From: an uncultured Bacilli bacterium
Lineage (GTDB): Bacteria; Bacillota_I; Bacilli_A; RF39; UBA660
Direction: 5' to 3'
DNA length: 32,000 nucleotides
NCBI GenBank assembly: GCA_910584305.1
Contig: CAJTZW010000007.1
Span: forward strand, 34,804-66,803
Numbering within the stretch: the first letter of the stretch is position 1; each line of letters begins with the position of its first letter. The notes under the pieces are model-generated. The model made no database searches, had not been told where the DNA came from, and saw only the letters and a program-made list of their open reading frames with translations. The translations under genes were made by a program, and so were the position numbers. This document shows, in pieces, positions 2,921 through 13,936 of this stretch.

Positions 2921-5086
2921 TTATGAAACTTCATATTTCCCACCAAAAGTAACCAAGAGCGAACTATCGGATGAAATCACAGAACCTTCTGGTATACTTT
3001 GATTTGTTACATATCCATTTCCCTCTAACGTATATGGAATATGTAATAGAGTACAAAGAGAAATCACATCACTTTTACTCCATCCAATAAGATTGGGCAT
3101 ATTATATATAGAAGAATTGGTAAGAAGAAGTACTTTATCCCCCGCAACAAGGGTTGTCCCTACACTCGGAAATTGATTGATAACACGACTTCCATCTCCA
3201 ATTATAATTGGATGTAATCCATATCCTCGCAACTCCTCTACAACAACTTCAATCGATTGGTTGGTATAAGATGAAACCACATACTCACTTACAGTAGACG
3301 CCTCTTCCCTTTCACTTAAATTTTCATACTTTGCAATACTCTTAATTACATCGGTTACAGCTGTATATACACCCGCACTGGTTCCCCAAAGAGGAGATTT
3401 CATAGCTGCATATATAATATACTCAGGATCTTCTGCAGGAAACATTCCTGCAAAAGAGAATATATAGTGATTTTCATTGGTTTCTATCACATAAGATCCA
3501 AGCTCTGCATTATAAATTTGTGAAGTTCCTGTTTTTCCAATTATATTGAGTCCTTCTACATTATAAGCACGCCCTGTCGTTGCACCTATATCATTACCAT
3601 GAATTGTATTATACATAAGTTCACGTATCTTATCTGTAGTAGATTTTTGTACAATAGAATCACTAACTTCAATTTGTCTTTCATAATAAATCTCATTGGT
3701 ATCCGGATTTACAATTTGCTTTACAATATGAGGTTTTACCATTTTACCATCATTAGCAACAATCGTTAGAGCCTGTAATTGTTGAATGGCAGTAGTTGTA
3801 ATTCCTTGGCCGAATCCAGCATTTGCTACTTCTACCTCATAATTAAAATTAACACGTCCTTTTTGCTCCCTAGAAAGTTCTATTCCCGTAATATCACCAA
3901 AGCCATATTTTTTAAAACAATCACGGAGTTCATCCTTTGATAAATAAGTACGAATTAAATTGACAATTCCAACATTACTAGAATATTCATATCCTTTATC
4001 GAAAGTAACTGCTCCCCAACCTATAGTATTCCAATCACGAATTGTCGCATCCGCCACAGAAACACTTCCAGATTGATATAATGCACTTCCATCATATTTC
4101 CCACTATCAATCGCACACATATATGTATATGTCTTCATAACAGATCCTGGTTCAAATGTCATTGTAACAAGTGGATTCTCGTAATTTACAATATTACGAA
4201 CATTAGGATCAAAAGATGGAGTTGAAGAAGTCGCTAAAATATCACCCGTTTTAGCATTCATTACGGTAAGTTGTAGCCACTCTGGAGAATAGGTAGTATT
4301 CGAAGCCTTAACCGCACTTTCTACAAACCTCTGCACTGTAGAATCAATCGTTAAATAAATATCATACCCATCAATCGCATCAATTGATACTTCTTTCGTC
4401 CCTGAAATTTTATAGCCATAGCGGTCTTGCTGATATTCCAAATAACCATCGGTTCCCTTTAATAAATCATTATACTTTAACTCAATTCCAAGTTCACCAG
4501 CAATTTGAATAGAAGAATTATTATTTTCATCTGTAACCTCTGTATCCTTAGCATATCCAATGACATAGGAAGCAAAATCACCATTAGGATAATATCGTTT
4601 TTGGCTCTCTATAAAATCAATTCCAGAAAGATTCAAGCTTTCAATTTCCTCTTTTTTTAACTCAGTAATTCCTCTTCCTCCTGGACCAAGTTCTACCTGA
4701 AATTTATCCATAGACATACGTTCAACTAAAGTAGAGACTTCCATTTCTAGTACAGGTGCCAAAGCCTCTGCTGTCATTTGTACATCCTTTACATAATCAT
4801 CTTTCCTACTTTCACGGCTAGCTTCTAAATAAGCAATCACTGTATAAGAACTGACATTCACTGCTAAAATATTTTGATTCGCATCATACACCGTTCCGCG
4901 GGTAGCAGAAAGTGTTTTCTTTACGGTACTTCTACTTGCCGCAAACTCATCCATATCCTTACCATACACCTTGCCTGATAATGACAAATAAGCAAATTGT
5001 AGATACAATAAAAAAATACAAAGTAAAAATACACCAAAAACAAATTTTGGAAAATTCCAAGTTTGTGTATTCCTCTTTGTATTCAT
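2921..5086 (-). CDS. class B penicillin-binding protein (FtsI/PBP2B/SpoVD family) with C-terminal PASTA repeats
   Basis: It has an N-terminal TM anchor, the transpeptidase motifs SVMK, SSN and KTGT, and two PASTA-like C-terminal repeats. It sits after ftsL in the dcw cluster. Confidence 0.9.
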   Translation of the reverse strand: MNTKRNTQTWNFPKFVFGVFLLCIFLLYLQFAYLSLSGKVYGKDMDEFAASRSTVKKTLSATRGTVYDANQNILAVNVSSYTVIAYLEASRESRKDDYVKDVQMTAEALAPVLEMEVSTLVERMSMDKFQVELGPGGRGITELKKEEIESLNLSGIDFIESQKRYYPNGDFASYVIGYAKDTEVTDENNNSSIQIAGELGIELKYNDLLKGTDGYLEYQQDRYGYKISGTKEVSIDAIDGYDIYLTIDSTVQRFVESAVKASNTTYSPEWLQLTVMNAKTGDILATSSTPSFDPNVRNIVNYENPLVTMTFEPGSVMKTYTYMCAIDSGKYDGSALYQSGSVSVADATIRDWNTIGWGAVTFDKGYEYSSNVGIVNLIRTYLSKDELRDCFKKYGFGDITGIELSREQKGRVNFNYEVEVANAGFGQGITTTAIQQLQALTIVANDGKMVKPHIVKQIVNPDTNEIYYERQIEVSDSIVQKSTTDKIRELMYNTIHGNDIGATTGRAYNVEGLNIIGKTGTSQIYNAELGSYVIETNENHYIFSFAGMFPAEDPEYIIYAAMKSPLWGTSAGVYTAVTDVIKSIAKYENLSEREEASTVSEYVVSSYTNQSIEVVVEELRGYGLHPIIIGDGSRVINQFPSVGTTLVAGDKVLLLTNSSIYNMPNLIGWSKSDVISLCTLLHIPYTLEGNGYVTNQSIPEGSVISSDSSLLVTFGGKYEVS

Positions 5087-5099
5087 CTATTTCACCTCT

Positions 5100-5396
5100 T
5101 TAGTCACTCACAATGACAATATTATCATTATTATAAGCAAGTCCCATATCAGAAACAATCCCTTTAATCTTATCAAAAGAAGTAAGTTCATTTACTTTCA
5201 TAACTAAACTTTCATTCTTTCTCTCCTGACTCTCGATATCATAACGTATTTTTTCCACACTCATACTCAAATGACTTACTCCAGCACCACAGAATATCTT
5301 TAATACCATCGTCATACCAAAACAAAACAAAGCACTCACATATAAAAGTCTTTCTCCCTTAGTAATCTTCATTTTTCTTTTCTTCGCTTTTTTCAT
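5100..5396 (-). CDS. ftsL: cell division protein FtsL-like
   Basis: This 98-aa bitopic protein has a basic N-terminus, one TM helix and a coiled-coil-like tail. It lies between rsmH and the PBP gene. Confidence 0.6.
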   Translation of the reverse strand: MKKAKKRKMKITKGERLLYVSALFCFGMTMVLKIFCGAGVSHLSMSVEKIRYDIESQERKNESLVMKVNELTSFDKIKGIVSDMGLAYNNDNIVIVSD

Positions 5397-5397
5397 A

Positions 5398-6321
5398 TTA
5401 TCCCTCTTTTATTCTCTCTATAACTCTAAGTTTTGCGCTACGTGCACGATGATTTTCTGTAATCTCTTGCGCAGTTGGATCTATCACACCAATTATTTTA
5501 AATTTAGGCATAAACTCCTCTGGAATGACTGGCATCTTCTGTAAATTTTTATCCACAGAACTAACCTCTTTAAAGATTTTCTTGCAGAGTTTATCCTCAA
5601 GTGAGTGAAATGTAATAACACAAATACGTCCCCCAACCGCTAATAAATCTAATGCTTGATATAAAGCAGATTCAAATACTTCTAACTCATGGTTTACTTC
5701 AATACGAATTGCCTGAAATACCTTTCTAGCAGGATGTTTCTCTAATTTATATTTCATAGGGACACTTTTCTTAATAACCTCCACTAACTCTAATGTTGTT
5801 GTAATTGGTTTTATTTGACGTTCCTTTACAATATTTTTTGCAATACTAGTTGCATACTTCTCTTCACCATATACAGTAAAAATATGAGCTAAATCTTCAA
5901 ATGAATACGAATTTACAACCTCATATGCAGAAAGCGATTCCTCCCTGTTCATTCTCATATCCAAACGTGCATCACTATGAAAACTAAATCCACGATAATC
6001 CTCATCCAGCTGTGGAGAAGATACACCCAAATCAAATAGAATACCATTTACTTTTTCAATGCCACGTTTTGTAAGCTCTTCTTTTATATGAGAAAAATTA
6101 GAATAAATCAGTTCATAGTTATCTGCAATATTAGAAAGTCTCTTTTGACTACTTTGAAGTGCCTCTGTATCTTGATCAAATGCATAAAGAAAACCGTTCG
6201 GTATACGGTATAAGATTTCACTGCTATGTCCCCCATATCCTAAAGTACAATCTACAACAATACTACCCAAAGACAAATTTAAATTTTCTAAACACTCTAG
6301 CAGTAAAACACTTTTATGCAT
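5398..6321 (-). CDS. rsmH: 16S rRNA (cytosine1402-N4)-methyltransferase RsmH (MraW)
   Basis: The sequence MHKSVLL.E....L....G..VDCTLGYGGHS...DLGVSS.QLD is the canonical RsmH pattern. The gene is immediately downstream of mraZ. Confidence 0.95.
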   Translation of the reverse strand: MHKSVLLLECLENLNLSLGSIVVDCTLGYGGHSSEILYRIPNGFLYAFDQDTEALQSSQKRLSNIADNYELIYSNFSHIKEELTKRGIEKVNGILFDLGVSSPQLDEDYRGFSFHSDARLDMRMNREESLSAYEVVNSYSFEDLAHIFTVYGEEKYATSIAKNIVKERQIKPITTTLELVEVIKKSVPMKYKLEKHPARKVFQAIRIEVNHELEVFESALYQALDLLAVGGRICVITFHSLEDKLCKKIFKEVSSVDKNLQKMPVIPEEFMPKFKIIGVIDPTAQEITENHRARSAKLRVIERIKEG

Positions 6322-6895: not shown

Positions 6896-8314
6896 CTACT
6901 TTCTTTTTCCAAAATCTTGGACTTCCTTATATACAAAGTTACATAATTTTGATAGTTGCTCTTTACCTATATAAATAACCCTACCTCCTGGAGGACTTAT
7001 TTTATGATTTCCGAAAACAATCCAAATCGCATTCAAATACTGCGTAGGCATAGAGGCATACCCATCTGTAAATATAATCTTATTATCTGCTTTAGTAAAA
7101 GAATTCACAGCCACAGTAAAGTCTGTTCCTCCACCACCCACAAGAGGTATATTATCTATATCACTATTATCCCTCACTTCATAAAAACCATAAAACACAG
7201 TATCAAAGCATCCAACTTTCATTTTTGAATTTTGTAAAATATTTTTACATTCTCTAAGAAAATTTCTAAGTAACACTTCACTGATAGACCCACTTGTATC
7301 AAGCAGTATCTCCGTTTCACTAGACTCTATTTCTTCTAAATGTGGTGTCACAACACCATATTCTATCGATGCATTTTGAAATGACCAATCTTCTAACCCC
7401 TTGACTGTTTTGGATAATAAGGTTGTCCAATCAACAAATGAATCTGCCACACCAATTTCATCTATATTTCTTACAGAAGAATTTGTAGAAATTCCAACAC
7501 CCACAGATTGTTTTGCTAAAGCATTTCTTAATTCCTCCAACTGTTTTTTTCTTTCTACCTTGTTTTGTTTAAAAACCTTTTTTTCTCCTAATTCCGCTAC
7601 CTTTTGTACTTGTTCTTTAATTTTCTTTTCTCGCTCATCCTGTAAAGATACTTGTCCATTTTCCTTAGAATCTTCTTTTCTCTGGTTTTTCCTAAAAACC
7701 TTATCTAAAAAACTACGATTAGAGCTTTGTTGTTTTGGCTCTCCTTTTTCTTTTAAGTTATTATCATCCGGCTGGTTCTTTTGCTTCTGCTTCTCAATAG
7801 CCTTGTCCCACATACTATGTGAATCATGCCCAACGCAATTATTTCCTTTTTCTGGTGTAGAATTTCTATTTTTAGACAGTGAATTTTCATCATTTTTGTT
7901 TTCCCGTTTTTCTAATAACCGTTGATATAGTTCCTCTGAATCATAATTAAGAGCATCAGAAATCTCAACAACGTTATCCACCAACGTCAATCCATCATTC
8001 TTTAAAAACGCATTAATCACAGCATCTGTTGCTTTATTCCATGTTTCTTTGTCTTTACCTTCACTTCGATAAATATGATTTAAAGCGACATGGCAGACTT
8101 CGTGTGCAAAGACAAACACCTGCTCACTTTCTGACAAATTATTTATAAAATCTGGATGATAAAAAATAGTTTCGGCATCTGTTCCTGCCGTCGGATTTCC
8201 ATAATCATCTACACAATCCATTGTCTCAACATAATTTAAATTTGCTGTTATACTCCCAAAGATAGGATATTGAACAAGTAATTTACTTTTTATTTTATTT
8301 ATATCAACACTCAT
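6896..8314 (-). CDS. HExxH metallopeptidase-like domain / K,E,Q-rich linker / VWA domain protein (DUF2201-like partner of MoxR ATPases)
   Basis: The N-terminal domain carries VFVFAHEVCHVALNH (HExxH). A ~130-aa low-complexity K/E/Q/N linker follows. The C-terminal domain has the MIDAS-like motif ILLDTSGSIS and a ...GGGGTDF... segment. Its start lies 1 nt after the upstream ORF's stop. Confidence 0.75.
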   Translation of the reverse strand: MSVDINKIKSKLLVQYPIFGSITANLNYVETMDCVDDYGNPTAGTDAETIFYHPDFINNLSESEQVFVFAHEVCHVALNHIYRSEGKDKETWNKATDAVINAFLKNDGLTLVDNVVEISDALNYDSEELYQRLLEKRENKNDENSLSKNRNSTPEKGNNCVGHDSHSMWDKAIEKQKQKNQPDDNNLKEKGEPKQQSSNRSFLDKVFRKNQRKEDSKENGQVSLQDEREKKIKEQVQKVAELGEKKVFKQNKVERKKQLEELRNALAKQSVGVGISTNSSVRNIDEIGVADSFVDWTTLLSKTVKGLEDWSFQNASIEYGVVTPHLEEIESSETEILLDTSGSISEVLLRNFLRECKNILQNSKMKVGCFDTVFYGFYEVRDNSDIDNIPLVGGGGTDFTVAVNSFTKADNKIIFTDGYASMPTQYLNAIWIVFGNHKISPPGGRVIYIGKEQLSKLCNFVYKEVQDFGKRK

Positions 8315-8315
8315 T

Positions 8316-8708
8316 TTATATATGTACCATCAATGAATATATATCTTCATCAATAGGATGTTCCTTTAAATTTGAACAAGTAACAAAAATCATACAATTT
8401 GGTGGCAACTCAAATGTACTAATTTTCTTATATTTTAAAATCTCCAGAAACTTTCTTTGTTCCTCTTTTGGAATTTGATTAATACAGTCAATCACTAACA
8501 AAGGCACAGCCTGATGTAATACCTCACTATACCATTGGGGCGACATATAATGAACATCCTCATAATGTCCTGACAACAAAGAAACATCACAATTAGCAGG
8601 CAAAACAACTCCCCCCTGAATTGCATTGGCAGAAATATCTTCTAATAGAATTGGAAAAACTCCCGCTTTTACATATTCATTCAAAAATTTTAATCTCTCA
8701 TTATTCAT
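8316..8708 (-). CDS. small AAA-like protein lacking a P-loop (degenerate MoxR-type core)
   Basis: PLLVIDCINQIPKEEQRKFLEILKYKKISTFELPPNCMIFVTCSN...IDEDIYSLMVHI parallels ILFLDEISNVKSNYILNLAFNLVLDRELDGKWQLPENARVVVAGN...PLFNRMAHVFI in the upstream ATPase. It has no GxxxxGK[ST] motif and reads DC instead of DE. An ATGA overlap joins it to the upstream ORF. Confidence 0.45.
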   Translation of the reverse strand: MNNERLKFLNEYVKAGVFPILLEDISANAIQGGVVLPANCDVSLLSGHYEDVHYMSPQWYSEVLHQAVPLLVIDCINQIPKEEQRKFLEILKYKKISTFELPPNCMIFVTCSNLKEHPIDEDIYSLMVHI

Positions 8709-10324
8709 CGTTTTTGCCCTCCCATCGATAGATGCTCTGCTCGTAACTCAGCAATTCGCTCCAGTCTTTTATCATCTCCATGAACCCAAAGACTATCGAA
8801 AGTTGCCACTATCTCAGGGCCTAACTTTGTTATAAAATTTCTCACAACTTCTAAATTTTCATCTGTAACAAAAGAAAGACCTACCGCTGTCGCATATTTC
8901 TCTGAAATATCCATATATTGTAACCCTTGATCACTATAATTATTACTTACTATATCCTCTATCGTTATTACTTGTTGCTCACAAAACTTAACAAAATCCT
9001 TTGTAATTTCCTCACCGACAAGTGCCCTTAGCATATTCGGATTTTTAGTAGTATATAAAACTTTAGAAGCCAGCTCCCATTTTCTTGGATCAGCATTTGG
9101 AGTTTCTCCATTATAAGGTGTTCTAAGCACCTCCTCACCCCTATATGCTACATAAGCATAAATAGCTGGGTGTATTTTTGATTCTAACTCTGTTCTCTTA
9201 TAATCAAGTCGCTCATACTCTTCCTTTGGTGTGGCTGCCCATTTAAGCCATCCATCTACTGTAGTAGTAATAAAAACATGGGCCATTCTATTAAATAATG
9301 GTTGTGGGATTTCTGTTGCAGAAATAGAATCACATTTTTCATTTCCAGCAACAACAACCCTCGCATTTTCTGGTAGTTGCCACTTCCCATCTAGTTCCCT
9401 ATCTAACACTAAGTTAAATGCTAAATTAAGTATATAATTCGATTTTACATTTGAAATTTCATCTAAAAACAATATATGAATTTTATCAGGTTCTTTCTCA
9501 CATTTTTCTTCTAATCGCTTTAACCATGTAGGCTTAATATCCATCATTTCACCCGTTTGTTGGTTATACACAGATTTTCCTGCAAAAGAATCTGGATTTG
9601 CTGTTATCAAATACACAATTTCTGGATTTGGATCAAGTTGCTTCACTCTCGCACTCTTTCCCTCACTCGATCTACCATGTAAAAATACAGTAACTCCACC
9701 TTCTACAGATCCTTTAATGATATCTTCTTCACTTACCTCGCTGAAATCAAAGCCATATGGATTTTGTTTCCTATACGACGTTGTAGTTTCCTTTGATTGC
9801 GTATTAACTACATTAGAAAACGTCAATTCATTATGTTGAAACAAATCTTTTGATAAGTAATCATTCATAAATTTTTTAATATCCGTTGTATTAAAATTTT
9901 TTGTCTTATAATCACTCTCACGGTTAAATTGTACACCTGCAAAAATTAGCTTTTCCATCAACATAATCTTATACTTTTCATCTATCAACCATTTGACTGG
10001 CTGTACTTCTATCCAAACAAAATCTCCATCTTGATACTGCTCACCATTTGAAAGTGTAAATTTTTCCCCATCATAATAAGAGTTAGCCTTTACTCTAACA
10101 TACTTTTTACCATCATATTCATACTCAATATGTTCTTGTGCTAAAAAAGCACTATCATATTCATCATTTTTCCGTGAATCTGTTGTATATATATTTCCTG
10201 TTTTATTTAAAAATCCAGCATGTAATGCAGTTTCCAAACGATTCTGTAATAATTTAGAAACCGCTGTCTGTGGATAATAGCCATATTCTACCTCTAATAT
10301 TTCATCTTTTCCTCGCCCACTCAC
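8705..10324 (-). CDS. MoxR-like (AAA_5-type) AAA+ ATPase with N-terminal GxYPQ...W(L/V)(I/L)D beta-rich domain; start codon doubtful
   Basis: Motifs are Walker A GRSSEGKS, Walker B HILFLDEIS, sensor-1-like VVVAGN and PLFNRMAHVFI (the MoxR L-x-RF motif). The listed GTG start at 10324 has GGAG directly abutting it with no spacer, and there is no ATG in the first ~120 codons. The frame is continuous with the upstream VR-containing ORF. Confidence 0.75.
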   Translation of the reverse strand: MSGRGKDEILEVEYGYYPQTAVSKLLQNRLETALHAGFLNKTGNIYTTDSRKNDEYDSAFLAQEHIEYEYDGKKYVRVKANSYYDGEKFTLSNGEQYQDGDFVWIEVQPVKWLIDEKYKIMLMEKLIFAGVQFNRESDYKTKNFNTTDIKKFMNDYLSKDLFQHNELTFSNVVNTQSKETTTSYRKQNPYGFDFSEVSEEDIIKGSVEGGVTVFLHGRSSEGKSARVKQLDPNPEIVYLITANPDSFAGKSVYNQQTGEMMDIKPTWLKRLEEKCEKEPDKIHILFLDEISNVKSNYILNLAFNLVLDRELDGKWQLPENARVVVAGNEKCDSISATEIPQPLFNRMAHVFITTTVDGWLKWAATPKEEYERLDYKRTELESKIHPAIYAYVAYRGEEVLRTPYNGETPNADPRKWELASKVLYTTKNPNMLRALVGEEITKDFVKFCEQQVITIEDIVSNNYSDQGLQYMDISEKYATAVGLSFVTDENLEVVRNFITKLGPEIVATFDSLWVHGDDKRLERIAELRAEHLSMGGQKR

Positions 10325-10373
10325 TCCGTTCGTGGAGATTGTAGATAAATTAGAGAACGGTAAAGCTGGGCGA
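10313..10373 (-). promoter_or_regulatory. nested inverted repeat at the 3' boundary of the VR (candidate DGR target-recognition hairpin/cruciform)
   Basis: On the plus strand, tcgccca (10313-10319) pairs with tgggcga (10367-10373) and ccgttc (10326-10331) pairs with gaacgg (10355-10360). The internal loop is a symmetric 6x6 and the apical loop is 23 nt. The partner arms are absent next to the TR. Confidence 0.35.
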
Positions 10374-10439
10374 CCACACCCAAATCGTTTAATGACTCTA
10401 GTCTAGATACTAGTTCCAATTCAGTAAACGACGCGCGCG
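10366..10439 (-). repeat. DGR variable repeat (VR)
   Basis: This 74 nt matches 11957-12030 at 64/74 positions. The 10 mismatches (10383, 10384, 10392, 10401, 10403, 10407, 10413, 10419, 10422, 10426) all correspond to T on the TR plus strand, which is A on the coding (minus) strand. Confidence 0.9.
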
Positions 10440-10720
10440 TCATTATCACCGTCATCAGTTTTTGTCCAATACCAGCCTGTACGGCTTTCTAATGAAGTAT
10501 CTCCATTATAGTGATATCCACTAGACACATAACCACCTAAAAGAATTGCAAAATCTGTGATTGCTGCACTTGTTCCCCTTTTTTGAATAACATCTAATGC
10601 TTGTGTTCCAAATATTTGTTCCTCTGTTAAAAACGTAAAATCATTCATACGTAAATCACCAACCTCATAATAACATAATTTTCTGAAATAGAAAATACAA
10701 TCTTCTACTTTTTTTGACAA
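10421..10720 (-). CDS. DGR target ORF fragment, C-type-lectin-like 'WWLRS...VRPAL' type domain truncated by a stop inside the VR
   Basis: The sequence ...FTFLTEEQIFG...TGWYWTKTDDGDNDARVVY* continues past the stops as IGTSI*TRVIKRFGCGRPAL. The listed start is TTG at 10720 and overlaps the RT stop; an alternative ATG at 10648 has a GGTGAT Shine-Dalgarno. The last 6 sense codons and the stop lie in the VR. Confidence 0.6.
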   Translation of the reverse strand: MSKKVEDCIFYFRKLCYYEVGDLRMNDFTFLTEEQIFGTQALDVIQKRGTSAAITDFAILLGGYVSSGYHYNGDTSLESRTGWYWTKTDDGDNDARVVY

Positions 10721-11739
10721 AAATTGGAAATAACTGCCAATTTTAGCCTTGAGCTTTCACTTGTATCCTTAATATGATTATAATATGCATTCTTCCTAGC
10801 ATATATATATTTTTCATCCACTAACCCCTTATTCTCTAATTTTGCTAAAGTTTTAAGATGTCTTTTTAATCTCACTCTAGAAGAATTTCGCAATTTTTGA
10901 ATTACCTTTCCTGTCGGTGTTAAATAGTGACAATATCCTAAAAAGTCAATCCCATTTTTTACCTTGCCTATTTGTGTTTTATTATTTAGGGATAAATCAA
11001 GCCCTGTTTTACAAAGATTTTTTATTTCTTCCAAACAATATTTTAAATATGCCTTATCACTATGTATTAAAATCATATCATCCATATAACGAATATAATA
11101 TTTAATTTGTAATTTTTCTTTGATGAAGTGATCCACTTTATTTAAGTATAAAAGAGCAAACCACTGACTTGATTGATTCCCTAGTGGCAATCCTATACTG
11201 TTTAAAGAGGATTCATTAGAAATCAATTTTTGTATCATCCACATCTCATCCTCTGAAAAAGAGATTTCCCTCAAAAGATTTTGTAATATTCGATGATTTA
11301 TACTAGGAAAATATTTTTTAATATCACACTTTAAAAAATAAAATTCATTATTTTTGCACAAAAAGTATTCCCTCCTTAAAAAACTTTCCAATCGATGAAT
11401 TGCAAAGGATGTTCCTTTTTCCTTTCTACAAGCCGCATTATCGTATATAAGTTTTCTCTCTATTCTAGACTTTAAACAAACATCACAAAAACACCTTATT
11501 AATACTCTATCCTTATAGGGTGGCGCTTCAATCAAGCGTTCTTTGGGTTCATATACAATAAACTTTCTATACCCACCTAACTCATATTTTTTAGTAACAA
11601 TTTCATTCATCATATTCACTATATTAGCACTTAAATTTGCTTCAAAACGTATAACCTCTCCTTTATGTTGTTTTGATTTTCTACACTCCTTATGTGCACT
11701 ATATAAATTTTCAAATGTAAATATATCTTCTAACTTCAT
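10705..11739 (-). CDS. DGR-type reverse transcriptase
   Basis: The catalytic motif is YIRYMDDMILIH (YMDD). The DGR-diagnostic motif-4 LGNQSSQ ([ILV]GxxxSQ) and the N-terminal YEPKERLIEAPPYKDRVL are also present. I prefer the ATG at 11739 (GGAGGT 5 nt upstream, MKLEDIFTFENLYSAHKECRK...) over the ORF-track start at 11790. Confidence 0.9.
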   Translation of the reverse strand: MKLEDIFTFENLYSAHKECRKSKQHKGEVIRFEANLSANIVNMMNEIVTKKYELGGYRKFIVYEPKERLIEAPPYKDRVLIRCFCDVCLKSRIERKLIYDNAACRKEKGTSFAIHRLESFLRREYFLCKNNEFYFLKCDIKKYFPSINHRILQNLLREISFSEDEMWMIQKLISNESSLNSIGLPLGNQSSQWFALLYLNKVDHFIKEKLQIKYYIRYMDDMILIHSDKAYLKYCLEEIKNLCKTGLDLSLNNKTQIGKVKNGIDFLGYCHYLTPTGKVIQKLRNSSRVRLKRHLKTLAKLENKGLVDEKYIYARKNAYYNHIKDTSESSRLKLAVISNFCQKK

Positions 11740-11956
11740 TTTACCTCCAAAAAAAGAACACCCCTTATAACGCACAAAGAATGCATACACATCCGTTGTT
11801 TGTGTAGGTGTTTTATATATTTGTCCACCGCACTGATTTTCTTTTAGCGGTTAGAAAAGAAGTAAATTCCTTCACTTTATAGCACGGATATACCCTACTT
11901 AGAATATATTTCTCTGGCCTGTTTTCTAGATTCATAAAATCTCTTCAAAAGTGAAT

Positions 11957-12030
11957 CTGGGCGACCACACCCATTTCGTTTATTGACTCTATTTTAGTTA
12001 CTATTTCCATTTTAGTTAACGACGCGCGCG
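11957..12030 (-). repeat. DGR template repeat (TR), non-coding
   Basis: This is the A-rich copy of the 74-nt repeat, with 27 A on the minus strand. It lies 217 nt upstream of the RT start and 72 nt downstream of avd, and no ORF covers it. In the target frame it reads VV-AAC-TAA-AAT-GGA-AAT-AGT-AAC-TAA-AAT-AGA-GTC-AAT-AAA-CGA-AAT-GGG-TGT-GGT-CGC-CCA. Confidence 0.9.
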
Positions 12031-12102: not shown

Positions 12103-12708
12103 CTACATTCTTTTTCTCCATCTTTCATCATCACTCTTTTTCCAAGCTGCTGTCAAATTCATTGCCTCTGATAATTGTATAGAGATTTGTTTATACTGCC
12201 GTGGTAAAATACAACAGGCATTTTCTGCAAGCATAGCAATATATCCTAAAAGTTTTAATTTAATAATTGCTTCTTTCTGATAATTCTCTCTCTCTTTCTT
12301 TTTATCTAAACTATCTACACGTATAAAATTTGCTTGTAGTAAACATTCTAATGACTCTAAACAATAGTTTTGCATACGGTTTACAAAAACACCACGATAT
12401 TTCTTAGGAGATTTCTCTGTAATTGCGATAATATAAGCTCCCAATTTTTTAACAGAAGTTATTACAATCAAATCATTAGAATTATATGGGATTTTTAAAA
12501 TACGATCAAGCCCTTTATCCTGTTCTTCAATCGTATCCCTTATCATTTCCTGATCAGCTTTTTTATCCTCTGAAATCCGAAATGCCATTTTTGTTGCAAC
12601 TCTATCCTCTATTGTATTAACTATTCCTTCTACATTTTCTACATCCCTTGGTATTTTTAAATTATTATCTCTACTAACTTGTAACATACTACTTACTACC
12701 TCAATCAC
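12103..12708 (-). CDS. avd: Avd-like accessory variability determinant (four-helix-bundle type) with ~70-aa N-terminal extension
   Basis: The C-terminal ~125 aa (DLIVITSVKKLGAYIIAITEKSPKKYRGVFVNRMQNYCLESLECLLQANF...LKLLGYIAMLAENACCILPRQYKQISIQLSEAMNLTAAWKKS) follows the Avd/23S-IVS four-helix pattern and sits immediately upstream of the TR. The start is uncertain: GTG at 12708 or ATG at 12687. Confidence 0.6.
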   Translation of the reverse strand: MIEVVSSMLQVSRDNNLKIPRDVENVEGIVNTIEDRVATKMAFRISEDKKADQEMIRDTIEEQDKGLDRILKIPYNSNDLIVITSVKKLGAYIIAITEKSPKKYRGVFVNRMQNYCLESLECLLQANFIRVDSLDKKKERENYQKEAIIKLKLLGYIAMLAENACCILPRQYKQISIQLSEAMNLTAAWKKSDDERWRKRM

Positions 12709-13248
12709 CTATACAACAAATAAATCTCCTATAAAATTAATTCCATCGCTTACAAAATTTATAAACAAATAGAATGTATCCCGAATTCTGTTTTTCTTAT
12801 AATCTTTCTTTGTAATCTTAAAAACGACACCATCTCTACATGATATAACATCACACTTTTGATGGTATCTTGCATAACGTTTCTTTATGATATCTATATC
12901 AATATCTTCATTTTTAACAAAAAGAACAACACTATACTCTGCCAAATATAAGCTATCTGAAATAAATCGTCTATGATACCCATGCAAATCATCATAAGAA
13001 GCAATAATATATTGAATATTTTGTTTACGAAATTTCTTTCGAATCTTACGATAAGAAATCTTTTTAGATGGACCCCTTTTTTTACCTTCCCCACCTGTAT
13101 AATTTAAATCTGATAATACTGTAAATGTTGTAATATTCTGATTTTTATCAATTTCAGATAACAATTTCTCATCTAAACTGCCAAATCCCAATACACTTCC
13201 ATGCATTGTACGAGAATTATCTAATAAAACCTTTTCTATTTTATTCAT
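12709..13248 (-). CDS. hypothetical protein with a C-terminal hydrophobic segment
   Basis: This ORF is wedged between tcdA (8-nt overlap using the ATG at 13248 with a GGTGAT Shine-Dalgarno) and avd (its stop abuts the avd frame). It has a basic patch KKRGPSKKISYRKIRKKFRK. I recognise no family. Confidence 0.45.
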   Translation of the reverse strand: MNKIEKVLLDNSRTMHGSVLGFGSLDEKLLSEIDKNQNITTFTVLSDLNYTGGEGKKRGPSKKISYRKIRKKFRKQNIQYIIASYDDLHGYHRRFISDSLYLAEYSVVLFVKNEDIDIDIIKKRYARYHQKCDVISCRDGVVFKITKKDYKKNRIRDTFYLFINFVSDGINFIGDLFVV

Positions 13249-13936
13249 AAACATCACCTATCATATGGTGTACAAGATAACTTGTACAAAGAAGTCCCGC
13301 TACACTTGGAACAAAGGAACAAGAAGCAATCGTAATACCCTCATGTGGTATAGGTCTCTCCATACTACAAACAACAGGAACTTTACCTGTAATATGCTCA
13401 TCACGTACCATTTTTCGAATAATTTTCGCAATTGGATCATAAGAAGTTTTTCGAATATCCATAACTTGAAGTTTAAGAGGATCTAGCTTATTTCCCGTTC
13501 CCATACAAGAAACAAAAGGAATATTTCTAGAACTACATACACGAATAATCTCCTTTTTTACTTCTATAGTATCACAAGCATCAACGACATAATCCACTTC
13601 AGATGTGATTCGCGTAGCAATTTTCTCTGGTAAAATAAATTCACAAATCCCTATAACATTACACTCTGGATTAATATCCAAAATTCTCTCTTTCATAACA
13701 TCCACTTTATATCTTCCAACCGTTGAATGAAGTGCAATAATTTGGCGATTGATATTGGTAATATCAACTGTATCACCATCTATTATAATAAGCTTACGAA
13801 TGCCAAGACGGGCTAGCGACTCTACAACATATCCACCAACTCCACCAATTCCTATAACCAAAACGGTTTTATTTTGAATGATTTCTACTTTATCTTGTAA
13901 CAAAAGTTCTAATCTTGTCCATTCCATATGTAACAC
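13241..13936 (-). CDS. tcdA: tRNA threonylcarbamoyladenosine dehydratase (ThiF/HesA-family, TcdA-like)
   Basis: VLVIGIGGVGGYVVESLARLGIRKLIIIDGDTVDITNINRQI is an E1-like Rossmann motif, and the ~230-aa size is typical of TcdA/CsdL. Confidence 0.8.
   Translation of the reverse strand: MLHMEWTRLELLLQDKVEIIQNKTVLVIGIGGVGGYVVESLARLGIRKLIIIDGDTVDITNINRQIIALHSTVGRYKVDVMKERILDINPECNVIGICEFILPEKIATRITSEVDYVVDACDTIEVKKEIIRVCSSRNIPFVSCMGTGNKLDPLKLQVMDIRKTSYDPIAKIIRKMVRDEHITGKVPVVCSMERPIPHEGITIASCSFVPSVAGLLCTSYLVHHMIGDVYE

Follow-up and report, generated by a model that had tools for sequence, protein, structure and literature searches.

A diversity-generating retroelement of gut Bacilli with stop codons in its template repeat and a target gene found mostly in a disrupted state

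Introduction

Why does the variable repeat (VR) of a diversity-generating retroelement (DGR) contain two stop codons, and how is the protein encoded downstream of them made? This question is raised by a 32,000-nucleotide (nt) stretch of DNA from an uncultured Bacilli bacterium (contig CAJTZW010000007.1, positions 34,804 to 66,803), which was analysed as a whole and is called the window here. On its minus strand, the VR lies between the start of a short open reading frame (ORF) of 99 amino acids (aa) and an ORF of 539 aa for a putative MoxR-like ATPase. A basic idea of DGR biology is that template repeats (TRs) consist mainly of AAY codons, so that the target is never truncated by mutagenesis. 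The codon usage of TRs is said to prevent nonsense codons, which has been taken as evidence of selection (10.1101/2023.09.22.558884, 10.1101/2024.11.15.621889, PMC12875486). Recent papers argue that the error spectrum of the reverse transcriptase (RT) evolved to minimise truncation, and DGRs with premature stops are discarded in surveys (PMC5758913).

In the window and its relatives, the two ORFs descend from a single gene, the stops in the VR are specified by the TR, intact (ON) and disrupted (OFF) alleles of the gene are found in nature, and stops recur in the TRs of the family. It is probable that the DGR rewrites this single target gene from a template with two stops, and that the alleles produced are mostly OFF and rarely ON.

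The two open reading frames are one gene

The elements of the target gene and of the template are the following.

10424..10648, minus strand: first 75 codons of the target gene, ending just before VR stop 1; aligns with full-length homologues from residue 1
10360..10439, minus strand: VR, covering target codons ~71-96, near the N-terminus
10421..10423, minus strand: VR stop 1, TGA, derived from a TR TAA by A to G
10403..10405, minus strand: VR stop 2, TAG, derived from a TR TAA by A to G
8705..10402, minus strand: remainder of the target gene in an open frame, comprising the last part of the VR module, a middle domain rich in beta structure, a predicted MoxR-like AAA+ ATPase and a helical C-terminal region
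11951..12030, minus strand: TR, a direct repeat of the VR with 85% identity
12012..12014, minus strand: first in-frame TAA of the TR (position 4, after GCG CGC GTC GTT AAC), paired with the VR TGA 10423-10421
11994..11996, minus strand: second in-frame TAA of the TR (position 10), paired with the VR TAG 10405-10403

Read from 10720 to 8705 on the minus strand, the sequence forms one frame of 672 codons with exactly two internal stops, the TGA at 10423-10421 and the TAG at 10405-10403. The initial annotation had proposed that the two ORFs share a frame, and this was confirmed. Their starts (10720 and 10324) are 396 nt or 132 codons apart, the TAG is the sole stop in the 32 codons from the first stop to the GTG at 10324, both stops lie inside the VR (10439-10360), and the next in-frame ATG is located 120 codons past this GTG. 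The shared frame holds for the window; it does not hold for alleles with an insertion or deletion (indel) of 1 nt in the VR, as in loci L001 (+1) and L096 (-1). The upstream part had been described as 99 aa long from a TTG at 10720. This was revised, since the true start is the ATG at 10648, so that the N-terminal fragment comprises 75 aa. The ATG is preceded by GAGGTTGGTGA and yields MNDFTFLTEEQ, with which the homologues also begin. Together, the 99-aa ORF and the ORF of the 539-aa ATPase form a single gene of 647 codons, extending from ATG 10648 to TGA 8705 on the minus strand.

The claim that the ATPase has no credible start of its own also stood. Six in-frame ATG, GTG or TTG codons follow the TAG (GTG 10324, TTG 10237, TTG 9988, ATG 9964, TTG 9961 and ATG 9958), and for none of them was a Shine-Dalgarno sequence identified at a spacing of 3-12 nt; the GGAG element overlaps the GTG at 10324 itself. 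In full-length homologues, this GTG corresponds to the Val codon of a conserved NGVSGR motif. The prediction that production of the full-length ATPase requires the conversion of both VR stops to sense codons is supported by locus L084 from the same species, which has TCC and TAC at these codons and encodes the whole protein.

When homologous loci were inspected, the two parts were consistently found as one gene, and not as two genes in different frames. With the fused 647-aa protein as query, 2848 homologues were identified, of which the best 120 are nearly all single proteins of 630-686 aa with 98-100% query coverage. A scan of GTDB genomes identified 355 stretches encoding relatives, and the 78 loci examined match across the fused query. 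The GTDB relatives are almost all metagenome-assembled genomes (MAGs) from the gut, labelled Bacilli, 'Tenericutes' or Clostridia. A reading of the VR in the +2 frame (44-aa ORF, 10455-10321) was considered and rejected, since only the target frame yields AAY codons and matches the homologues.

The stop codons are specified by the template repeat

Over a core of 77 nt, the TR and the VR differ at 11 positions, all of which are adenines in the TR (11 of its 28 adenines), and no mismatch was found at any other nucleotide. In the frame of the target, the TR reads GTC GTT AAC TAA AAT GGA AAT AGT AAC TAA AAT AGA GTC AAT AAA CGA AAT GGG TGT GGT CGC CCA, followed by GAT TCA C. This frame, which is marked by the typical AAY codons, has TAA at exactly the two codons that are stops in the VR. 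The VR stops are templated and are not accidents of mutagenesis. Since TAA is present in the TR at both codons, a stop is the templated default and the likeliest result of each retrohoming event. Adenine mutagenesis converts TAA to T-N-N, which encodes F, L, S, Y, C or W or is one of the three stops.

The element has an RT of the RVT_1 fold with an SQ motif, the differences between TR and VR are confined to TR adenines, and the VR is diversified in populations, as expected for a DGR. A TR that is unable to yield nonsense codons has been named as a hallmark of DGRs under selection, although it does not formally define a DGR; the window TR has two in-frame TAA codons instead.

The GC-rich 3' end common to TR and VR (TGGGTGTGGTCGCCCA, window 11958-11973 and 10367-10382) can form a hairpin of 6 bp. 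In the TR copy, TGGGTGTGGTCGCCCA is followed by GATTCACTTTTGAAG, a motif that is kept across the TRs of the family. This region may be part of an element for RT recognition or priming.

Natural alleles in the species of the window

The allele set comprised the window (WIN) and the loci L001 and L080-L096, which were obtained from NCBI MAGs, ENA and Logan by cluster and contig look-ups. Of the 18 other loci of the species, 15 have exactly the TR of the window; the TR region is missing from two, and a TR-like VR was seen in one run. Over 64 nt of the VR, 14 distinct alleles were identified, with a total of 3 mismatches to the TR at nucleotides other than adenine. The ATPase ORF contains 3 variable sites in 1620 nt among 16 sequences, and with these 3 sites only, the within-species ratio of nonsynonymous to synonymous polymorphism (pN/pS) of the ATPase has no power.

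A stop (TAA, TAG or TGA) is present at 20 of the 28 codons derived from TAA. Sense codons at these places are TCC, TTA, TCA, TAC and TAT, all of the form T-N-N. The gene is disrupted in 13 of the 14 alleles and intact in one, L084. This locus, with TCC and TAC at the two codons and an identical TR, encodes protein P0123, which has 671 aa as called from the upstream TTG and 647 aa from the ATG. At least 24 contigs encode the truncated product P0121 of 539 aa, compared with 3 for the full-length product.

Several alleles were recovered in identical form from different assemblers and runs (L081=L085; L080=L083=L088=L090; L082=L089). The recurrence of identical stop-bearing alleles argues against assembly noise. 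Two loci, L084 (ERR3199683_459) and L092 (ERR3199631_459), agree in length (79215 nt), contig number and gene coordinates and differ in their VR alleles, one being ON and the other OFF.

In addition to the stops, 1-nt indels in the VR were identified in several alleles and species, which shift the frame of the ATPase (L001 5954-6018, L096, L018 ~5210-5290, and proteins P0030, P0139 and P0143). The VR of L001 has a +1 insertion, and that of L096 has a -1 deletion together with a change of AGA to TGA. The L001 insertion places an ATG inside the VR in the frame of the ATPase, preceded by AGGATAGAG. These indels reflect either an appreciable indel rate of retrohoming or assembler error.

The adenines of the AGT and AGA codons (TR positions 28, 40 and 42) are retained in 86-93% of the alleles, although most alleles are truncated upstream, and the AAY adenines in about 40%. 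Retention at the AGT and AGA codons may be a context bias of the RT, or may be due to selection while alleles are ON.

Template stops in related loci and in a second species

The family was represented by 20 distinct TRs, including that of the window, each with a known target and located ~1.6 kb upstream of the VR. Of these 20 TRs, 14 contain one or more in-frame stops (TAA, TAG or TGA), which recur at positions 3/4 and 10/12.

Position 3, TAA: L041; TAG: second species (L097)
Position 4, TAA: window, L004, L009, L010, L015, L018, L036, L061
Position 4, TAG: L016
Position 10, TAA: window, L022, L056
Position 10, TGA: L010, L015
Position 12, TAA: L003

The alternatives in other TRs are TGG or AAC at position 10 and AAA, AAG or AAY at position 4. 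The RTs belonging to these TRs are ~61-67% identical to one another, and stops are present in 11 of the 14 members of the main clade; the branch of L009 was ignored in the RT tree, in which the extracted RT is a wrong ORF (20% identity). The TR-stop trait is old, recurrent, or both. A metagenome scan with the conserved TR 3' end (CCAGATTCACTTTTGAAG) gave 33 matches, most of them by chance. Seven of the matched loci are TR-like (L110, L118, L120, L122, L124, L128 and L134) and provide three new TR sequences (L110, L118 and L128), in which no stop was found in the part matching the VR.

For 5 of the 14 species with TR stops, the representative loci have VR stops, and these occur only at the TR-stop codons (the species of the window, L003, L004, L015 and L056). 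In L018, a -1 frameshift in the VR is found in place of a VR stop. Among the loci examined from species without TR stops, no VR stops and no disrupted targets were identified. The remaining ~560 codons form an open frame in each of the disrupted species.

A second species (L097-L102), which serves as an independent replicate, has a TR with a single TAG. Four distinct OFF alleles of this species retain the TAG as a VR stop at the TR-stop codon. In three ON proteins, the residue at this place is S, W or L, as would be encoded by TCG, TGG and TTG (T-N-G). ON and OFF alleles of one gene coexist in the natural populations of both species, as in a phase-variable locus.

Other loci of the family differ in organization. 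In L012 (~5100-5130), TR and RT are present, and an in-frame deletion of ~32 codons, located between DNDAR and SSNGVRG, has removed the VR segment of the target entirely. Many genomes contain two to four tandem paralogues of the sensor-ATPase gene (L002 at 5001 and 8883, L008, L011, L020, L031, L040/L041, L066/L075). In L002, a single TR matches the VRs of two paralogues with different sequences, which suggests that two targets share one DGR. For many further homologues, no TR is located within 5 kb. In L098, a low-coverage assembly of the second species (1231-2125 and 4633-6217), the RT is split into ORFs of 56 and 186 aa and the DUF2201 gene described below into ORFs of 295 and 240 aa, which represents a degraded copy or a sequencing error.

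Gene neighbourhood of the cassette

The other genes of the cassette are listed here.

12103..12708, minus strand: Avd-like DGR accessory gene, 201 aa, with weak matches to DivGenRetAVD and bAvd; adjoins the TR on its upstream side
10705..11790, minus strand: DGR RT, 361 aa from a GTG; likely start ATG 11739, giving 344 aa
8316..8708, minus strand: gene for a 130-aa partner; its start overlaps the ATPase stop (ATGA)
6896..8314, minus strand: DUF2201 partner, 472 aa, with putative metallopeptidase and VWA-like domains (Pfam)

On the minus strand, from 12708 to 6896, the order is Avd-like gene, TR, RT, target, 130-aa gene and DUF2201 gene. The Avd-like protein matches NCBIfam DivGenRetAVD with an E-value of 1.1e-7 (32 bits, under the cut-off of 80 bits) and Pfam bAvd with an E-value of 1.6e-4 (22.6 bits, under the cut-off of 40); its size and its position directly upstream of the TR are kept in the related loci L001, L080 and L097. 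The RT, which is called as 344 aa in the other assemblies L001 and L080, matches Pfam RVT_1 (E 1.9e-15) and the PADLOC RT profile (E 1.7e-34). Its sequence LPLGNQSSQWF holds an SQ dipeptide (GNQSSQ motif), which is typical of DGR RTs (PMC3521204). For the target remainder, the ORF list gives 539 aa from GTG 10324.

No family match was found for the 130-aa partner in Pfam, NCBIfam or PADLOC; a gene for 130-133 aa is present at the equivalent place in L001, L080 and L097. The DUF2201 gene, two genes downstream of the ATPase, is likewise kept in these loci. The 472-aa protein matches Pfam DUF2201_N (E 2.5e-29) and the VWA-like DUF2201 (E 8.1e-13). A promoter and terminator scan gave counts at chance level, with no terminator between RT and target.

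The cassette is flanked by lexA, spoIIGA-sigE and a ThiF-family gene on one side and by mraZ-rsmH-ftsL and the gene for a penicillin-binding protein on the other. These chromosomal flanking genes indicate that the host is a spore-forming Bacillota genome and not a phage. The ThiF-family E1-like gene (231 aa, with PADLOC 'E1-E2' matches to the ThiF domain) overlaps a 182-aa ORF (window 12709-13936, minus strand), for which no match was identified in Pfam, NCBIfam or PADLOC. The pair adjoins the Avd-like gene on its upstream side in all assemblies of the window's species. In the second species (L097), the pair is missing at this place and a tRNA synthetase gene (annotated as Val-tRNA synthetase-like) precedes the Avd gene. 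The ThiF-family gene and the 182-aa ORF are probably not part of the DGR system.

The target protein

The target contains a Walker A motif (GRSSEGKS) and a Walker B motif (HILFLDE), both of which are invariant in the family alignments. Among its homologues, AAA_5 is matched by P0016 (24.0 bits, cut-off 22) and P0087 (33.9 bits). A search of the PDB with a sequence profile from the family alignment gave nothing meaningful. A structure was predicted with AlphaFold for the closest intact homologue, P0005, which is 62% identical (mean pLDDT, the predicted local distance difference test, 75). In this model, the N-terminal ~100 residues including the VR are confident. Residues 100-108 form a linker of low confidence and residues 110-270 a beta-rich domain, after which come an alpha/beta ATPase and a helical region. 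A Foldseek search of the model against the PDB gave NorQ as the best match (E 1.8e-7, template modelling (TM) score 0.45 on the target), followed by MCM, and the structures matched in a viral library are phage dynein-related or MoxR-like AAA proteins.

The family Fib_succ_major weakly matches 15 of 19 N-terminal segments (best E 0.002), and DUF6273 matches the equivalent region of the longer paralogue P0002 with 27.3 bits (cut-off 23.5). Both are families which we take to be lectin-like. By these sequence matches, the hypervariable N-terminal module is weakly DUF6273/Fib_succ_major-like and, on this basis, may be C-type-lectin-like. The N-terminal 112 residues modelled alone gave a pLDDT of 42, which is unusable for fold classification. 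No signal peptide or membrane segment was identified in the target sequence, implying that the sensor is probably cytoplasmic.

Proposed mechanism and its alternatives

In the proposed mechanism, the DGR would replace the VR with adenine-mutagenised complementary DNA (cDNA) copied from the TR. Each retrohoming event would rewrite ~14 sensor codons and draw a T-N-N codon at both TAA codons, and a stop would be the usual draw, because adenines are often retained and A to G is the commonest change. OFF alleles would give a fragment of 75 or 81 aa and no translatable ATPase, and expression of the translationally coupled downstream genes would probably be reduced too. When both TAA codons are converted to sense, the full 647-aa sensor-ATPase would be produced with a new binding surface. 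The next retrohoming event would usually turn an ON allele OFF, and could erase any stop or indel in the VR. The module may sense an intracellular ligand, perhaps from an invader, and the ATPase-VWA-peptidase module might, as a speculation, act on whatever the sensor binds. A role in conflicts with phages or plasmids is a speculative suggestion, drawn only from the analogy with DGR-linked vWA-MoxR systems (PMC7159879).

It can be proposed tentatively that the nonsense codons of the template were selected. The DGR would then be both a diversifier and a stochastic ON/OFF switch of an intracellular sensor-ATPase-VWA/peptidase system, which would probably be directed against invaders. The copy would be silent in most cells, and each of the few cells expressing it would have a single new specificity. 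Cost or self-reactivity would thereby be limited, loosely like the clonal expression of immune receptors.

Whether the allele frequencies require selection can be judged from the retention of adenines, which is 0.66 at the TAA codons, 0.40 at the AAY codons and 0.66 at other adenines. Compared with the expectation from the AAY spectrum (0.42 per codon), the 20 stops in 28 codons are in excess (p=0.0017). For the Bordetella enzyme in vivo, a mean misincorporation of ~31% was reported in 2026, which is context-dependent, with C in the cDNA (A to G) as the commonest error and AAC as a special high-mutation context (PMC12875486). The Bordetella spectrum, which comes from a distant DGR, predicts ~0.73 stops per TAA codon and ~0.08 whole genes, and 0.71 and 1/14 (0.07) were observed. 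Positive selection for stops is not claimed, since retention at the TAA codons (0.66) equals that at the other non-AAY adenines and fits the published context-dependent spectrum. OFF alleles are not purged in the sampled populations, and it cannot be claimed that they are favoured.

Several points weigh against a DGR-driven switch of a MoxR-like ATPase. The excess of stops fits a neutral draw from the template and does not demonstrate an adaptive ON/OFF role. The relatives use the stop-free TAY and TGG at the same positions, so that TAA is not forced; this argues for tolerance or selection, without telling which. The alleles are consensus metagenome assemblies and not single cells or reads, and the agreement between L084 and L092 suggests that their backbone is shared, either by co-assembly or by a reference-guided assembly with a per-sample consensus, which weakens the independence of these alleles. 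There may be low-level initiation at GTG 10324 or reinitiation after the TAG, and the 539-aa product might fold, residue 109 being at the end of the low-confidence linker in the P0005 model. Neither the window ATPase nor the N-terminal fragment has a match in Pfam, NCBIfam or PADLOC, and the designation of the ATPase as MoxR-like derives from its gene context and from the structure predicted for a homologue with 62% identity.

Instead of being selected as a switch, the TR stops might be a tolerated by-product, a reading that is possible rather than probable. They would be kept since T-N-N (or T-G-N) is the only route to Trp, Leu, Phe, Tyr, Cys and Ser at two binding-site positions with a preference for aromatic residues, and the stops would be a cost at the population level. 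That five related TRs, and also homologues lacking a DGR, have TGG (Trp) at position 10 is in line with this, as are the sense outcomes, which are of the F, L, S, Y, C or W types, and the agreement of the stop frequencies with the neutral expectation. TGA at position 10 in two TRs and TAA in three suggest a G to A path TGG>TGA>TAA that adds variability. However, F, S, Y and C can be obtained without stops from TAY, which relatives use nearby, and a template with two TAA codons, giving a whole protein in ~8% of events, exacts a very high price. It is also hard to square a strong benefit from the protein with the dominance of OFF alleles in the natural populations of the species.

A second alternative, which is doubtful, assumes two functional products. 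In alleles with stops, the ATPase would be translated alone, starting either at GTG 10324 or at a codon that arises within the VR, and the DGR would toggle between a sensor-coupled and a sensor-free ATPase. Gene callers choose GTG 10324 here (P0121) and the homologous GTG in another species (P0051), the protein would begin at residue 109, just past the linker, and L001 has the VR-borne ATG in the ATPase frame with AGGATAGAG before it. Against this, GTG 10324 and the later in-frame starts have no Shine-Dalgarno sequence at a usable spacing, the GTG is merely the conserved Val codon of NGVSGR, and the stop 79 nt upstream of it is too far away for efficient coupling.

It is unlikely that the system is decaying, with disabling mutations in the TR and a target on its way to a pseudogene, so that the DGR runs at a locus which no longer matters. 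Disruption of 13 of the 14 alleles in the window's species, some of them by indels, would fit decay, as would the loss of the entire VR segment in L012, and more than half of the candidate GenBank DGRs were discarded as defective in a survey (PMC5758913). Yet stops are present in 14 of the 20 TRs over a clade with RTs of ~61-67% identity, and the ~560 further codons are open in AT-rich genomes. In addition, the genes for RT and Avd are intact, whole ON alleles occur alongside OFF alleles in two species, and lesions in the VR would be reversible by retrohoming, unlike ordinary pseudogenisation.

That the stops are assembly errors or are read as sense (by an alternative code, selenocysteine or pyrrolysine) is highly improbable and largely refuted, even though hypervariable regions are hard to assemble and a few alleles have indels, since the same stop-bearing alleles were obtained by independent assemblers from different runs, all three stop codons occur at the same positions, exactly at the TAA codons of the TR, and genes nearby, among them the RT and the ATPase itself, end in TGA or TAG, which also led to the rejection of readthrough.

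Comparison with known systems

The element is a genuine DGR, and what is new is the architecture of its target and a template design that breaks an accepted rule. No description of templated stops or of DGR-driven ON/OFF switching was found in the accessible literature, including the largest metagenomic DGR survey. With stops specified at fixed positions and populations that are mostly OFF, this family of active gut-Bacillota DGRs contradicts the idea of the AAY template. If the OFF state is selected, it would represent a new form of phase variation and a way to silence a hypervariable intracellular sensor in most cells; if it is only tolerated, the family shows the truncation cost that a DGR target can bear. 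DGR pipelines that discard targets with premature stops miss such genes, and an annotation that splits the gene into a '99-aa hypothetical' and an 'ATP-binding protein' hides the class.

With the canonical DGRs of Bordetella phage BPP-1 (Mtd), Treponema (TvpA) and the Bacteroides pilus, the window shares the SQ-motif RT, the Avd-like gene, differences between TR and VR at adenines only and AAY variable codons, in addition to a GC-rich common 3' end followed by divergence and a strong natural diversity of the VR. It differs by the in-frame nonsense codons of its TR, which TRs are built to avoid according to the literature. Further, the VR is located near the N-terminus of a 647-aa ATPase that is probably cytoplasmic and not at the C-terminus of a surface or tail protein, and the gene order is Avd-TR-RT-target.

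The ATPase domain has its best structural matches in NorQ (9qhg, 9qh8 and 9qh4; E ~1e-7), and like NorQ/NorD and other MoxR-VWA pairs it has an adjacent VWA partner. In contrast to these, the sequence identity is ~13%, the target is extended by sensor and beta domains at its N-terminus and by a long helical region at its C-terminus, and a metal-insertion context is missing.

In the known cases of DGR-diversified domains linked with MoxR/vWA or STAND NTPases, the variable domain forms the C-terminus of a different component (PMC7159879, PMC10907252). The window adds a previously unreported architecture, with the variable module on the N-terminus of a MoxR-like ATPase. The DGR-associated VMAP systems (Kaur et al. 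2020, PMC7159879) are ternary conflict systems with vWA and MoxR components, described from cyanobacteria and gammaproteobacteria. They share with the window a neighbourhood that combines a DGR-diversified ligand-binding domain with a vWA protein and an AAA+ ATPase of the MoxR class (as predicted for the window), and presumably intracellular recognition. Of the three-component core, the ATPase and the VWA protein are present in the window, and the third gene, of 130 aa, has no family match. In VMAP systems, the variable FGS domain is located on the vWA protein with a TvpA-like extension, whereas a much smaller module is found on the N-terminus of the ATPase here. The vWA partner here is a DUF2201 metallopeptidase-VWA protein, the hosts are gut-Bacillota MAGs and not multicellular bacteria, and no TR stops were reported for the VMAP systems (PMC7159879).

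In the NTPase 'antigen sensors' that DGRs diversify in multicellular bacteria (Dore et al. 2024), the sensor domain is likewise hypermutated on an NTPase of a putative conflict system. The NTPase is of the STAND class there and MoxR-like AAA+ here. For these sensors, the codon composition of the TR prevents nonsense codons, which was proposed as a mark of DGRs under selection (PMC10907252 / 10.1101/2023.09.22.558884), a rule that is broken by the family of the window.

Phase variation by slipped-strand or contingency loci has in common with the window a dedicated mutational process at one locus, which would be reversible and of high frequency here too, and a mixture of ON and OFF (prematurely terminated) alleles in a population. 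Different from classical phase variation, switching here would come about through the error-prone copying of a nonsense-bearing template by the RT, and each ON event would give a new protein sequence.

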